Below are positions 27,558-59,948 of a stretch of 64,000 nt of DNA, one piece after another. This DNA comes from Bacillaceae bacterium (lineage in GTDB: Bacteria; Bacillota; Bacilli; JACDOE01). The notes beneath the pieces are model-generated. The model saw only the letters and a program-made list of their open reading frames with translations, did no database searches and was not told the origin of the DNA. Location of the stretch: positions 497,205 through 561,204 of the forward strand of contig JACDOE010000001.1 in the NCBI GenBank assembly GCA_017656255.1, in the 5' to 3' direction. The position numbers and the translations under genes are program-made. Positions within the stretch are counted from its first letter, which is position 1. The number at the start of each line of letters is the position of its first letter.

Positions 27558-28004
27558 ATGAAGATATCCGCAAAAAAAAAGACATGGGGGTCTGTGTTAT
27601 TAATACTCACAGTTATCATCAGCGGGTGTTCCGGTGAACAAACTCCTGATGCAGTTCATAAGCCGTTGCCGGATTATCTGAGGGTTTCAACACAGGTGGA
27701 AGACATGTATCTTGCTGCAGCGAACCATGCTCAAGTGCTTGAATACATGCCCTGTTACTGCGGTTGTGAAGATGTTGGACATACATCCAATTATGACTGC
27801 TTTGTACGGCAAGCGGGTGCAGATGGTACCGTGACAGAATGGGATCCCATGGGAGCAGGCTGAGGGATCTGTCAGAATATAGCGCGTGACGCTATTCAGA
27901 TGTATGAAGACGGAGAAGATTTATCGGAAATAAGACGTTATATCGAAAAAACCTATGCCGTTCCGGGAAAGGGAACGCCTACACCGGAACCGCCAACCTC
28001 TTAA
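27558..28004 (+). CDS. PCYCGC-motif lipoprotein with an in-frame TGA (27861-27863): candidate selenoprotein (UGIC motif) or disrupted gene
   Basis: Lipobox LTVIISGC. MPCYCGCEDVGH motif. The reading frame continues uninterrupted for 46 codons beyond the TGA (GICQNIARDAIQMYEDGEDLSEIRRYIEKTY...) to a TAA at 28002-28004. An intrinsic terminator follows only after that second stop. The ORF track stops at 27863. Confidence 0.45.
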
Positions 28005-28010
28005 TCACCG

Positions 28011-28046
28011 AAAGGCGACGGAACTTTGATTTCCGTTGCCTTTTTA
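28011..28046 (+). terminator. Intrinsic terminator after the extended PCYCGC ORF
   Basis: ggcgacggaa-ctttgat-ttccgttgcc then ttttt. Confidence 0.7.
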
Positions 28047-28102
28047 ATGTAGTGCCAGTCCGGATATACTAAGGTTGCAATTTAAATGAAAAGGAGTATG
28101 AC

Positions 28103-28690
28103 ATGGACTGGACACTGGAACGTTCCATTACAATCACAGCAGTCGCTGCAAGTCTCGTGGGAAGTTATTTTATCCTAAGACTGGACTGGAAACGTTATGG
28201 ATTGTTGTTCGTATTAAGCGGAATTGTTGGCAATATCCTCTGTTATCTATTCGTTATTTTTGGTTTTTACTCCTATCCTTATCGGATGTTTCCGCAGTTT
28301 GTCAACATGCCGATAATGGCTGTATTGACCGTGTTTCCATTTTATGTTTTGTTGGGAGTCAGATACAGCCCGCGTGAGTGGGCCTGGAAAATTCCTTTTT
28401 ACTGGGTGTTTGTACATGTGGGGATGCTCCTGGAAACCATTGCTCAGCATTTTACCGGATTGATTCGTTACGAGTTTGCGTGGGACGTCTGGGATTCCTA
28501 TACCTGGTGGTGGATATATTTGCTTGCTTTTGAATGGATCGGAGGACTAATCATACCGGATAGGGTGAGGAAGCCATTAAAGGTGGAATCATTTCGATAC
28601 GGCAGAGGTCTATGGGCGACCCTCCATTTTATTCTCATCATCACCATCTTTCTTGCTGGATTTTATCTGGGATGGCTAATCAGGGGGTAA
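28103..28690 (+). CDS. CBO0543-family-like integral membrane protein
   Basis: ~195-aa Trp-rich polytopic membrane protein. No catalytic motif. Confidence 0.45.
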   Translation: MDWTLERSITITAVAASLVGSYFILRLDWKRYGLLFVLSGIVGNILCYLFVIFGFYSYPYRMFPQFVNMPIMAVLTVFPFYVLLGVRYSPREWAWKIPFYWVFVHVGMLLETIAQHFTGLIRYEFAWDVWDSYTWWWIYLLAFEWIGGLIIPDRVRKPLKVESFRYGRGLWATLHFILIITIFLAGFYLGWLIRG

Positions 28691-28752
28691 TGAGATTTTT
28701 TCTTGATATTCCCTGCTTTATTAAATGCATCAAGTCAAATACTTAAAGTATC

Positions 28753-57131: not shown

Positions 57132-57224
57132 CGGTTGGCCTCCCTCATAATGCGTGTATTTACACATAATATGTTCACAATCACAGCGAGTTATGAGAGA
57201 GGCATTCTCAAGTTTAGACCGGTC

Positions 57225-58112
57225 TTACTTTTTCCCGACCGTTACCTTTCCTTTTTTCTCATAGGGCAGGACAATGGCTGAAATGTCTTCATCAGCGTGC
57301 CCGTCCTGACTTGTTTCTTCAATCTTCTGTTCCGCAAGCGCTGTAAAATCATAATCCACTTCCAGTTTATTTGCCATATCAAGCGCCAGCCGGATATCTT
57401 TATGCAGCAACTTTACGCTGAAACGCTGCTTAAAATCCCGGTCTTCAATCAGCGGCAGGCAGCGATCCATCATCGTGTTGTAACCAGTACTGTGACGGAT
57501 AATATCAAATAGTACATCGGATGTAATACCTGCTTTTGCACCCATCACAAACGCTTCAGAGAGAGCGGCTGTATGGATGCCGACCAGCAGATTGTTAATC
57601 AATTTGGCAACACTTCCACTACCGGTTTCACCAACTCGCACGATATGTTTTCCCATTGCTTCAAAGGCCGGAGTTGCTTTCTGGAAAGGTTCTTCTTCCC
57701 CTCCTACCATGATGGTCAATGTACCGGCCTCTGCTCCCATCGGCCCACCACTGATTGGGGCGTCCAGAAAATGTACCCCTTTCTCACCGGCTGCCCGGGC
57801 GATTTTTTTGTTTAGATCAGGGCTTACCGTACTGTGATCGGCCAGTATCAGGCCCGGCCGGGCGCCTTCAAGAAGGCCTTTTTCTCCCAGATAAACCGAT
57901 TCCACGGTGTCCGGCATCGGAAGACAGGTACAAACCAGATCAACCTGTTCCGCCAGTTCCCGATAGGTGGAAGCTTCCTTCGCACCCCAGGACAGGGCTT
58001 TTTCCACGGGAGGACGACTCCGGCTGATTACGGTAACATCAAAACCCTTTTCAATCAAATTCCTTGTCATGGGAAGTCCCATGGTTCCCAGTCCTACAAA
58101 ACCTACTTTCAT
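57225..58112 (-). CDS. NAD(P)-dependent oxidoreductase, 3-hydroxyisobutyrate/tartronate-semialdehyde dehydrogenase family
   Basis: N-terminal Rossmann GFVGLGTMGLPM and the 6-PGDH-like NAD-binding domain. Confidence 0.75.
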   Translation of the reverse strand: MKVGFVGLGTMGLPMTRNLIEKGFDVTVISRSRPPVEKALSWGAKEASTYRELAEQVDLVCTCLPMPDTVESVYLGEKGLLEGARPGLILADHSTVSPDLNKKIARAAGEKGVHFLDAPISGGPMGAEAGTLTIMVGGEEEPFQKATPAFEAMGKHIVRVGETGSGSVAKLINNLLVGIHTAALSEAFVMGAKAGITSDVLFDIIRHSTGYNTMMDRCLPLIEDRDFKQRFSVKLLHKDIRLALDMANKLEVDYDFTALAEQKIEETSQDGHADEDISAIVLPYEKKGKVTVGKK

Positions 58113-58242
58113 AACAAATCCTCCTGACAGATAATTTTTAGAATAATTTCAGTAAAAATATTTGTCATATTAAAAAATGAGTGTCCAGATTGCTTGTCTT
58201 TCATAAATTCTTCATGAAACGCAAAAACTCCTTGTATAGGAG

Positions 58243-59631
58243 GTGTTGAATTTGCCGGTAAAGTTCCGATTGATTGCCTTTATCTGTATATGTATGGTCA
58301 TATCTTTTACCCTCAGCCCAACTGTCGTTTACGGGGAAAGAACCATTCAATCCAACCCCTCGATCGCATCTTTTGTGATCCATGAGGTTCGTTATGGCGA
58401 TACACTGTGGGAACTGGCCGACCGCTATCAAACATCAATCAAACTGATCAAGACCCTTAATGGTCTTCATCAGGATAATCTGATCCCCGGCCAGGCACTT
58501 CTGATTCCTGGACTCCATTATTATGCCGCAAAAGGGGAATCCCTGTTTGATATCGCCAATCGGCACGGCCTCTCAACACAACAACTGATACAGGCAAACA
58601 AACTGAAATCAACCGACATTTATCCGGGACAGAAATTATATATTCCATCCATCTATCAAAGAACCATCATGACCGGAGGGTATGTCGTCCCTCAAAATAA
58701 AGAACAGGATCAGGCGTTAATCAAGCGATACCAGAGGGTTGTCAGTCAAATCGGCGTTTTCGAATATCACCCGGACCGAAACGGCAATTTGAGCCGTCTG
58801 TCAGATACCACTGTGATCAGGGAAGCCTGGCGTAAACATATTTATCCGGTAGCCGTTGTGACCAATCTAACCAAAAAGGGATTTGATCCGGAACTGGCCC
58901 ATATAATTTTACATGATCCCGTCACCCGGGACAGGCTGATTCAAAATATTCGTGATCTTCTTCGCAGTAAGGATTACAAAGGCGTCAATATTGATTTTGA
59001 AGGATTAAAACCCGATGATCGCAAAGCGTTTAACCGTTTTATGCGGAAACTCTCAGAAACGCTAAAGCCGATTGGTTTTACCCTGTCCATTGCCGTTCCG
59101 CCCAAACAGGGTGATGCCTATCCGTCCTATCATGGAGCCTATGATTACCGAACGCTGGGGCAAATCGTGGACTATATGTTTCTGATGACTTATGACTGGC
59201 ACTGGCCGGGTACCGGTCCAGGCCCTATCGCCCCCTTCGGTCAGGTCAGGGAAACTGTAAAATATGCGGTTAAGGTTGTTCCCCGCCACAAATTATTTAT
59301 TGGAATTCCCATTTATGCTTATGACTGGACTTACGGACCTAATGGCAAAACGACTGCCCGAGCGTATTCACAACTGAAAGCACAGCGACTGGCACTCAAA
59401 CATCAGTCAACCATCCTTTATCATGAACGGGACAAATCCCCCTACTTTTCATATCGCGACGAGAAAGGTAACCGGCATGTGGTCTGGTTTGAAGATGCCC
59501 GCAGCATCATGGCGAAGTATAGATTAATGAACCAATATGGATTGCGGGGAATGGGAGGCTGGAGACTGGGACTACAGTTTCCCCAGGCCGAATACATGCT
59601 GGCCCATTTTTTTCAAATTCAGAAACCCTAA
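58243..59631 (+). CDS. LysM-LysM-GH18 spore peptidoglycan hydrolase (SleL/YaaH/YdhD-like)
   Basis: Two LysM domains, then a GH18 catalytic region (DIDFEGL...LMTYDWHW). Start ambiguous: GTG 58243 or TTG 58252, with AGGAGG at 58238-58243. Confidence 0.75.
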   Translation: MLNLPVKFRLIAFICICMVISFTLSPTVVYGERTIQSNPSIASFVIHEVRYGDTLWELADRYQTSIKLIKTLNGLHQDNLIPGQALLIPGLHYYAAKGESLFDIANRHGLSTQQLIQANKLKSTDIYPGQKLYIPSIYQRTIMTGGYVVPQNKEQDQALIKRYQRVVSQIGVFEYHPDRNGNLSRLSDTTVIREAWRKHIYPVAVVTNLTKKGFDPELAHIILHDPVTRDRLIQNIRDLLRSKDYKGVNIDFEGLKPDDRKAFNRFMRKLSETLKPIGFTLSIAVPPKQGDAYPSYHGAYDYRTLGQIVDYMFLMTYDWHWPGTGPGPIAPFGQVRETVKYAVKVVPRHKLFIGIPIYAYDWTYGPNGKTTARAYSQLKAQRLALKHQSTILYHERDKSPYFSYRDEKGNRHVVWFEDARSIMAKYRLMNQYGLRGMGGWRLGLQFPQAEYMLAHFFQIQKP

Positions 59632-59663
59632 AAGAAAAAGCCACAGCAAATGTGGCTTTATTC

Positions 59664-59948
59664 TTAAACAGCATAAATGGAAAAATTTCCTCTTCCAAAC
59701 AGCGATTTATAATATTCAATGTTGATCGTATTCAGTTGTCCGGCGATGGATTCATCGATCAGTAAGGTGATCCCTTCCACTTCTTCGACAACATCTCGAT
59801 CCCGTTTTGACTCTTCCAGAGCCATGACAAAATTGGGACCTCCTCAGCCAAAGCCCTGGACATCGATTCGAATGTAGTAATCTGTTTTACCGTGTTCCTG
59901 CAGGATATTTCTTAATTCTTTCGCTGCATCTCTGGATATGTTAACCAT
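59664..59948 (-). CDS. HesB/IscA-like protein with in-frame TGA at the conserved first Cys position (candidate selenoprotein)
   Basis: Minus-strand translation gives MVNISRDAAKELRNILQEHGKTDYYIRIDVQGFG-[TGA]-GGPNFVMALEESKRDRDVVEEVEGITLLIDESIAGQLNTINIEYYKSLFGRGNFSIYAV. It aligns with IscA (RLGVRTSGCSGMAY...VVVDGKSLQFLDGTQLDF), with the TGA (59844-59846) exactly at the GCSG cysteine. Absent from the ORF track because the TGA splits it into two sub-60-aa pieces. Confidence 0.55.

Follow-up and report, generated by a model that had tools for sequence, protein, structure and literature searches.

Two families of bacterial selenoproteins are the closest described relatives of the genes considered here. 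PF13798/OS_HP4, with selenocysteine (Sec, U) in a UxxC motif, and the HesB-like proteins, with Sec in UxGP, are both listed as selenoprotein families in a 2026 review (PMC13188914); OS_HP4 was listed with UxxC in a 2022 review as well, the NCBIfam model NF041379 bears the name "CYCXC family (seleno)protein", and the PCYCGC family has been called a bacterial lipoprotein (PMC13068155). The present study concerns a window of 64 kb on contig JACDOE010000001.1, from the metagenome-assembled genome (MAG) of a Bacillaceae bacterium. There, a PCYCGC/CYCXC-family lipoprotein gene (gene 1) and a HesB/IscA-like gene (gene 2) are each interrupted by an in-frame TGA, and a sequence-only reading of the window had proposed that both codons are decoded as Sec. 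It took the HesB-like proteins for a known Sec family, which TIGR01911 and the UxGP listing (PMC13188914) bear out, and the lipoprotein family for one not known to contain Sec, which is contradicted by the listing of PF13798/OS_HP4 and by the "(seleno)protein" in the name of NF041379.

The surprise that it implied at finding Sec in Bacillaceae is not warranted either. A 2016 census (PMC5029168, Tables S1/S2) marks SelD, SelA and SelB for numerous species of Bacillus, each with 2-10 selenoproteins, and some thirty Bacillales figure in it as Sec decoders, among them B. azotoformans, B. oceanisediminis, B. selenitireducens and Caldalkalibacillus thermarum; its entry for Bacillus bataviensis LMG 21833 reads SelD+, SelA+ and SelB+ with six selenoproteins. 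Ten years earlier, a 2006 survey (PMC1794560) already reported Firmicutes/Bacillales with three selenoprotein families. For the RNA signal, the bacterial Sec insertion sequence (bSECIS) model (PMC13188914) specifies an apical loop of 3-9 nt with G within its first two positions, usually followed by G or U, an upper stem of 4-16 bp, a UGA-to-loop distance of 16-37 nt and a minimum free energy (MFE) of no more than -7.5 kcal/mol.

Our analysis leads us to the view, with a probability of roughly 0.88, that the window contains two genuine selenoprotein genes which belong to known families and use standard bacterial recoding. Both protein families and the use of Sec in Bacillaceae have been described previously and the window MAG is a new carrier; since both families are already listed as selenoproteins, the finding is mainly a correction of annotation. 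As for the mechanism, a hairpin within the coding sequence, i.e. a bacterial SECIS, lies 21 or 26 nt past the in-frame UGA in each mRNA, and SelB·GTP·Sec-tRNA(Sec) would bind it and deliver Sec at the UGA instead of release, a step that we take over from established bacterial systems. For gene 1, Sec would replace the first Cys of a CxxC motif and give UxxC in an extracytoplasmic lipoprotein; for gene 2, it would stand in UxGP in a protein from which the C-terminal Cys is absent.

Gene 1's open reading frame (ORF), 27558-27863 on the + strand (101 aa), ends at the TGA 27861-27863, and past it the frame is open for 47 further codons up to the TAA at 28002-28004. Around the stop it reads ...EWDPMGAG-TGA-GICQNIARDAIQMYEDG...TPTPEPPTS, and the whole continuation is ...EWDPMGAG-TGA-GICQNIARDAIQMYEDGEDLSEIRRYIEKTYAVPGKGTPTPEPPTS-TAA, ending at 28004. 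With Cys put in for the stop, the 148-aa product matches PF13798 at 111 bits (E=6e-32, residues 34-145; gathering score 25 bits), and the match crosses the TGA and covers profile positions 40-151 of 153. An alignment of 51 sequences (A1), 50 of them database homologues, has Cys in at least 90% of the sequences at the column of the TGA, which is the first Cys of C-G-I-C. The PCYCGC motif and the conserved H75, C81, H98, C102 and C105 are all found in gene 1, where 102 is the TGA position, and residues 102-105, U-G-I-C, form the sole CxxC-spaced pair within the PCYCGC domain. From the lipobox a membrane-anchored, extracytoplasmic protein is predicted.

One might suppose that the two TGAs are ordinary stops, that the genes have decayed into pseudogenes or the MAG contains errors of sequencing or assembly, and that the products, if any, are truncated. 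Such an explanation would agree with the source of the DNA, with the mere fragments that GenBank holds for both genes, with the sel genes not being seen in the searched DNA and with the presence of other decayed genes in the window, among them the PNPOx fragment of 43196-43486 and what looks like remains of a transposase. The recurrence of the codon makes it extremely improbable. A profile scan with the clade alignment over one genome per GTDB species gave 80 loci, and of the 67 PCYCGC genes which could be classified at the position, 46 carry TGA and 21 a Cys codon (TGC or TGT); TAA and TAG do not occur. Together with one Logan contig there are thus 47 TGA forms besides that of the window, carried mostly by Neobacillus, Mesobacillus, Effusibacillus and "Bacillus sp.", with several closed isolate chromosomes among them. 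Six other HesB-like genes likewise have TGA and never TAA or TAG, as described below. Two database entries, P0001 and P0031 (proteins and loci are cited by P and L numbers), end exactly at the TGA position of gene 1; P0031, 51% identical, derives from an unrelated Logan contig whose DNA reads in frame ...EWDAMGIS-TGA-DICVNIAREAVEMYDGG.... An independent Logan assembly of run SRR13776092 also has the same TGA. The same TGA in many genomes, closed isolate chromosomes included, means that it is neither an error nor private to the window MAG.

The part of the PCYCGC gene downstream of the TGA also behaves as coding sequence. None of the 48 TGA forms has a second stop within 39 codons past the UGA, and the ratio of nonsynonymous to synonymous changes (pN/pS) in these 48 forms is 0.41 over the 39 codons after the UGA versus 0.32 over the 36 codons before it; the open frame and this ratio, which points to purifying selection, indicate that the downstream part is kept as protein.

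Several loci of the scan deserve a separate remark. Tandem TGA copies occur in L039 (L039:3325 and L039:3979), Neobacillus sp. PS3-12 has two separate PCYCGC loci (L025 and L046), and two Neobacillus drentensis loci differ in that L018 is a Cys form and L059 a TGA form. A Neobacillus-type TGA form is also borne by L055, labelled "Priestia megaterium strain S2", which suggests that this genome is mislabelled.

The hairpin that follows the UGA of gene 1 is built from the codons of I-A-R-[ED]-A-[VI] and is formed by such codons in every TGA form. Most of the other TGA forms have AUCGCC-CGGGA-GGCGRU or AUUGCC-CGGGA-GGCAAU, while the closest TGA-form relative, L006 (55% identity), has the same AUAGCG/CGCUAU stem variant as the window. 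Over 41 sequences, 98.8% of the cells of the stem are paired, versus only 30-64% in controls with a slid 3' arm. In two of the six stem pairs both partners change (CG/UA/AU and CG/AU/GC), there are 10 doubly changed cells, and not one of 500 shuffles equals that number or the covariation score. The best control for the hairpin is provided by the Cys forms, which belong to the same family and encode a nearly identical peptide. All six pairs are intact in 44 of the 47 TGA forms versus 2 of the 21 Cys forms; the two pairs in which both partners are synonymous third-codon bases (columns 21-33 and 24-30) are present in 100% of the TGA forms versus 57% and 24% of the Cys forms; all 47 TGA forms have a CGGGA or CGUGA loop, which varies in the Cys forms; and the mean MFE of the hairpin is -8.75 kcal/mol for the TGA forms versus -3.15 kcal/mol for the Cys forms. 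The hairpin of gene 1 is therefore specific to TGA forms and shows compensatory synonymous changes, which again speaks against ordinary stops. In the window, the minimal stem-loop has an MFE of -5.2 to -5.8 kcal/mol and the 60-nt fold one of -12.2 kcal/mol, to be read with the model limit of -7.5.

Gene 2 lies on the - strand, where its ORF 59948-59844 (34 codons) ends at the TGA 59846-59844 and the frame runs on to the TAA at 59664. It reads ATG 59948 ... GFG-TGA-GGPNFVMALEES ... TAA 59664, with the whole continuation ...IRIDVQGFG-TGA-GGPNFVMALEESKRDRDVVEEVEGITLLIDESIAGQLNTINIEYYKSLFGRGNFSIYAV-TAA. When Cys is placed at the stop, the product matches PF01521 (Fe-S_biosyn) with 30.4 bits against a cut-off of 26.3; within NCBIfam the best match is TIGR01911 (HesB_rel_seleno) with 56.5 bits (cut-off 66.35), and NF038090 is matched with 48 bits (cut-off 85). 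The motif occupies the position of the first IscA-type Cys, with Sec in UxGP, and past residue 35 the protein, which ends in ...FGRGNFSIYAV, has no Cys at all.

Relatives of gene 2 were sought in several ways. The sole match of a word-index protein search was the window MAG's own C-terminal fragment P0051, and a scan of viral contigs gave no homologues. When the 59 residues past the UGA were searched exhaustively with HMMER, seven relatives came out, and a metagenome search was made with a three-sequence alignment. TGA stands at the gene 2 position in six other distinct sequences (L084, L085, L086, L089, L091/92 and L093/94), TAA and TAG in none; L085 is a Bacillaceae-type NCBI contig, and L091/92 and L093/94 are two distinct Joint Genome Institute (JGI) metagenome sequences. 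L090, which is more distantly related, encodes Cys at the TGA position (G-V-G-C-S-G-P). All seven distinct TGA forms have a hairpin over the codons of M-[AST]-L-[ED]-E-[STA], with a GGA loop in the six others, and its third stem pair varies among the orthologues as G.U, U-A, A-U and U.G. In the window this hairpin is lengthened by a lower stem to about 59799-59833, and its MFE, -11.7 kcal/mol for 38 nt and -18.9 kcal/mol for 60 nt, lies below the -7.5 limit.

The relatives of gene 2 also bring up another way to read the UGAs, namely without selenium, be it through a code in which UGA means Trp or Gly (tables 4/25) or through near-cognate insertion of Trp, Cys or Arg. It could draw on the Sec machinery not being seen in the searched DNA and on the fact that the full-length relatives P0053, P0054, P0057 and P0058 all show W at the TGA position (G-x-G-W-G-G-P). 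For the three of them that were checked, P0053, P0054 and P0057, the DNA has TGA at this W, and translation of the loci with table 11 does not give the stored protein; presumably the W calls arise from the gene caller switching to genetic code 4. The four proteins (loci L084 and L086-L089) are public calls on short metagenome contigs, which have thus led to spurious "GWGGP" proteins. Within the window, TGA ends 12 of the 57 other genes, and the 18,362 codons of these genes include 262 TGG and no in-frame TGA; TGA is hence an ordinary stop elsewhere and Trp is TGG, so that a global reassignment does not apply. Moreover, homologues hold Cys rather than Trp or Gly at both positions, a hairpin of SECIS geometry always follows the UGA, and a species with the TGA form is recorded as SelA/SelB/SelD-positive. 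We consequently regard a selenium-free reading as very improbable. For further read-throughs in the window, gaps were checked by eye, and a coding-potential scan proved non-discriminating, as it missed gene 1.

Some results do weigh against two functional selenoprotein genes. The machinery was searched for with ARAGORN and Rfam on the window, with Pfam on essentially all of its 57 long ORFs, with a 10-kb extension on a Logan contig, and, in the fetched loci, with ARAGORN and with tblastn using E. coli SelA/SelB/SelD queries; neither the 64-kb window nor the 10 kb to the right of it nor the fetched loci yielded selA, selB, selD or a tRNA-Sec. Both proteins score below the cut-offs of the Sec-model NCBIfam entries (NF041379, 65 versus 90; TIGR01911, 56.5 versus 66.35). 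The hairpin of gene 1 is A-U-rich and weak, with a stem-loop that alone lies above the bSECIS limit of -7.5 kcal/mol, and the GC...GC core of the PCYCGC stem is partly forced by the conserved Ile-Ala...Ala-Val/Ile codons. Finally, the resemblance of PCYCGC proteins to CcmH, to which we return below, is a weak one, Pfam CcmH being matched at E<=0.1 by only 2 of 51 members.

Some of these points would fit a lineage that has recently lost selA/selB/selC, so that the two genes are relics whose TGA forms go undecoded in the window MAG; bacteria often lose the Sec trait (PMC1794560), the sel genes were not seen in the searched DNA, and the PCYCGC hairpin of the window is at the weak end of the range. 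We rate such a loss as quite improbable, because in each of two genes separated by 32 kb the frame past the UGA is still open and the hairpin intact, and because the sharing of the AUAGCG/CGCUAU stem variant with L006 indicates that this variant is maintained rather than decaying. Accepting two functional selenoprotein genes, we infer that the Sec machinery is encoded in the genome of the window MAG. The claims of the sequence-only reading on the codons themselves are therefore upheld: the TGAs fall at Cys positions, as seen from the conserved-Cys column for gene 1 and from the Cys form L090 for gene 2; their recurrence in 47 plus 6 other genes, never as TAA or TAG, together with the independent assembly, rules against random errors or pseudogenisation; and the pairs of Cys and TGA orthologues, the hairpins at the right distance and the conserved in-frame continuation make it very likely that both are decoded as Sec. 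The Bacillaceae-type host that it supposed agrees with GenBank, where the fragments are named as those of a Bacillaceae bacterium MAG. The features of the two genes and of their surroundings are collected in Table 1.

Table 1. Positions in the window of the two selenoprotein genes, their signals and related features
Feature	Position	Strand	Remarks
PCYCGC/CYCXC-family (PF13798) lipoprotein selenoprotein gene (gene 1)	27558..28004	+	148 codons, one UGA-Sec = residue 102
Lipobox I-I-S-G-C, residues 20-24, end of signal peptide	27615..27629	+	Direct sequence reading; homologues with aligned G-C-S lipobox
Signature P-C-Y-C-G-C, residues 65-70	27750..27767	+	C66, Y67, C68, G69, C70 invariant in the 51-sequence alignment
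In-frame UGA read as Sec, first residue of U-G-I-C (UxxC)	27861..27863	+	Conserved-Cys column
SECIS-type hairpin AUAGCG-CGUGA-CGCUAU	27879..27895	+	6-bp stem, 5-nt loop with G at position 2, 21 nt from UGA to loop
HesB/IscA-like selenoprotein gene (gene 2)	59664..59948	-	94 codons, one UGA-Sec = residue 35, without C-terminal Cys
In-frame UGA read as Sec in G-F-G-U-G-G-P (UxGP)	59844..59846	-	TGA also in six other distinct sequences
SECIS-type hairpin UGGCUCU-GGA-AGAGUCA	59808..59824	-	7-bp upper stem, 3-nt loop beginning with GG, 26 nt after UGA
Upstream same-strand genes: rhodanese, TusA-rhodanese, DsrE, rhodanese-metallo-beta-lactamase (persulfide-dioxygenase type), TusA, DUF302	59970..63358	-	Pfam
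65-codon small ORF with two in-frame TGAs	63650..63847	-	Candidate third Sec gene

The practical side of the matter lies in the public annotation. As the sequence-only reading expected, standard ORF finding yields only fragments for both genes, and its fear of mis-annotation as truncated genes proved justified, with nothing but fragments deposited: in GenBank, gene 1 is an 89-aa fragment (MBO8170798.1; P0001, H0Z33_02785, "MAG: hypothetical protein ... [Bacillaceae bacterium]") and gene 2 a 53-aa C-terminal fragment (MBO8170831.1; P0051, H0Z33_02955). Because the Sec-aware NCBIfam model misses the Bacillaceae-type PCYCGC clade, automated annotation probably truncates the PCYCGC gene in many Neobacillus and Mesobacillus genomes: against NF041379, seven relatives, of Bacillaceae type, from Chloroflexota and others, reach 58.7-78.1 bits, with Sec and Cys forms alike under 90. 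OS_HP4 has no entry in the family table of PMC5029168, though a genome of that census, Bacillus (now Neobacillus) bataviensis LMG 21833, carries the TGA form (locus L044). The poor reach of NF041379 and this gap in the census seem to be two points that are under-recognised.

With regard to the function of the PCYCGC protein, we turned to its Cys homologue P0002, which is 47% identical to the gene 1 protein over the alignment (56% in the best BLASTP segment). Its AlphaFold2 model (pLDDT 90.7, pTM 0.80) is mostly helical with two short strands, and places the Sec/Cys residue directly before a helix (120-134) and the second Cys of the motif inside it. The A1 family profile matches E. coli CcmH (2kw0) with E=0.007 over ...GKSxxEIxxYxxxRYG. 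The C-terminal half of the PCYCGC proteins thus resembles CcmH, the thiol reductase of System I cytochrome c maturation (PDB 2hl7, 2kw0), though the likeness does not amount to membership: compared with PCYCGC, CcmH has its CxxC some 12 residues more distant from the aligned helix, and it lacks the extra Cys/His-rich N-terminal half of the PCYCGC proteins. Assignment of the PCYCGC proteins to CcmH (PF03918), which would call for a match to its HMM and for the LRCxxC arrangement of the active site, was rejected. The genes nearby are a dihaem cytochrome c gene and a CcmE-domain gene downstream in Neobacillus, CopC/CopD in Effusibacillus, and, upstream of gene 1 in the window, COX1/COX2 cytochrome-oxidase genes and a DUF255 thioredoxin-like gene. 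The likeliest role of gene 1 would be thiol/selenol-disulfide redox chemistry or metal handling in the assembly of cytochrome or copper centres, and the link to CcmH is to be taken as a weak lead, not as a classification.

Gene 2 is probably the last gene of one operon with the sulfur-transfer genes upstream of it (59970..63358). Similar surroundings are seen elsewhere, in L085, in L084 (DUF302 adjacent) and in L092 (rhodanese upstream). Just past the window end lie a gene for a CsoR-family repressor (PF02583, Trns_repr_metal; L003:8656-8916) and also a second, paralogous cluster of TusA-rhodanese, DsrE, rhodanese-metallo-beta-lactamase (rhodanese-MBL), TusA, thioredoxin and rhodanese genes. 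Upstream of the rhodanese/TusA/DsrE operon, at about 63400-63500 of the window on the - strand, there are two palindromes, ATACCTATGGGGGTAT and TACCCATAGGGGTA, which we take to resemble CsoR/CstR operators; the gene 2 cluster is putatively regulated by CstR. We considered gene 2 as an A-type Fe-S carrier (IscA/SufA/ErpA, with three ligand Cys and a C-terminal C-x-C) and rejected this, since the protein has no Cys after residue 35 and its scores are far under the equivalog cut-offs. Because the C-terminal Cys is absent and the context is a sulfur-transfer cluster, the protein would most likely serve persulfide or selenide traffic, taking up or carrying such sulfur on its selenol, and this suits it better than Fe-S cluster delivery or the part of a classical three-Cys Fe-S carrier.

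Concerning L092, a 123-kb metagenome contig (L092:3596-3997 and L092:5140-5688), the rhodanese before its HesB-like Sec gene is broken by stops, and some 850 nt downstream of the HesB-like Sec gene there is a gene of the CcmH family. The split rhodanese was considered as a case of active-site Sec and dismissed, since the stop precedes an intact CQSGMRS site.

Near the end of the window, a small ORF contains two in-frame TGAs and reads MNHHDKNLTDEQIVTDTTSNQHCSGST-U?-GVPDPSRKKGLKSIPL-U?-PGTIVWLLAGAYLLIQSFMK. Its ATG overlaps (ATGA) the stop of a 190-aa ArsM-like methyltransferase gene, and a strong intrinsic terminator follows it. The second TGA has, 23 nt later, a perfect hairpin of SECIS geometry, GGCUCCU-GGC-AGGAGCC; the first has no convincing hairpin. 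Searches of the fetched loci, of Pfam and NCBIfam and of the protein index gave no homologue of the small ORF, which may be non-coding or else a new selenoprotein, the third here. That it supplies the C-terminus which the ArsM-like methyltransferase lacks is improbable, as it is in another frame and without the UxxG motif (in the list of PMC13188914).

We also considered three readings that reach further than what we found in the literature. First, the Sec-containing PCYCGC lipoproteins would be a large unrecognised clade of extracytoplasmic, CcmH-like proteins in aerobic soil Bacillaceae, with 46 of the 67 classified genes in Sec form, a part in the maturation of cytochrome c and copper centres, and scores that escape the NCBIfam cut-offs. 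Second, the HesB-like Sec protein without C-terminal Cys would be a dedicated persulfide/selenide acceptor in sulfide-stress operons of CstR type. Third, the small ORF would found a new family of double-Sec membrane selenoproteins. To us, such readings look rather less likely than not.

Other observations concern the window at large. At 43196-43486, an ORF of 96 aa resembles a truncated PNPOx_N gene and has several stops behind it; it was examined as a possible read-through and set aside, because no frame continues past them. At 42300-42900, overlapping short ORFs resemble transposase debris, and the whole is a decayed region within an 858-nt gap. Two FecCD permease ORFs (47591-49015 and 48628-49641, -) overlap by about 390 nt as listed, and translation of the longer one probably begins downstream of its first possible start codon.

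The chief value of these results is for annotation, in that two genes of a MAG had been deposited as meaningless fragments. They add a well-supported case of a predicted membrane-anchored, extracytoplasmic selenoprotein in largely aerobic spore-formers, and they give two functional leads, a possible CcmH-like redox role near cytochrome and copper genes and a HesB-like Sec protein in persulfide-detoxification operons. What is known of the genetic code and of the distribution of Sec is left unchanged.

Compared with the described systems, both window hairpins resemble the bSECIS, as in E. coli fdhF, in being stem-loops inside the ORF just past the UGA. Their loops of 5 nt (PCYCGC) and 3 nt (HesB-like), stems of 6 and 7 bp and spacings of 21 and 26 nt are all within the ranges of the model, and the rule for the loop G is followed by C-G-U-G-A, which is CGGGA in most orthologues, and by the G-G-A of the HesB-like gene. 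The difference is that the stem-loop of gene 1 alone is weaker than -7.5. SelB would presumably bind to the window hairpins as it does elsewhere. With OS_HP4 and NF041379, gene 1 shares the PF13798 family, the CYCGC signature, the His/Cys ligand set and Sec in UxxC; with 65.1 bits, below the 90-bit cut-off of NF041379, it is homologous but outside the equivalog. Along with all Bacillaceae-type relatives tested, it differs from OS_HP4 in the N-terminal lipoprotein signal and the TPTPEP tail, and, whereas OS_HP4 is an ocean-metagenome type, the clade of gene 1 is one of soil and thermophilic Bacillaceae. Gene 2, for its part, is like the HesB-like selenoproteins of TIGR01911/NF038090 in the PF01521 fold family, the G-x-G-U-G-G-P motif and the hairpin after the UGA. 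It differs from them in scoring under both cut-offs, in lacking the C-terminal Cys kept by P0053, P0054 and P0057, and in standing as the last gene of a rhodanese/TusA/DsrE/persulfide-dioxygenase/DUF302 cluster.

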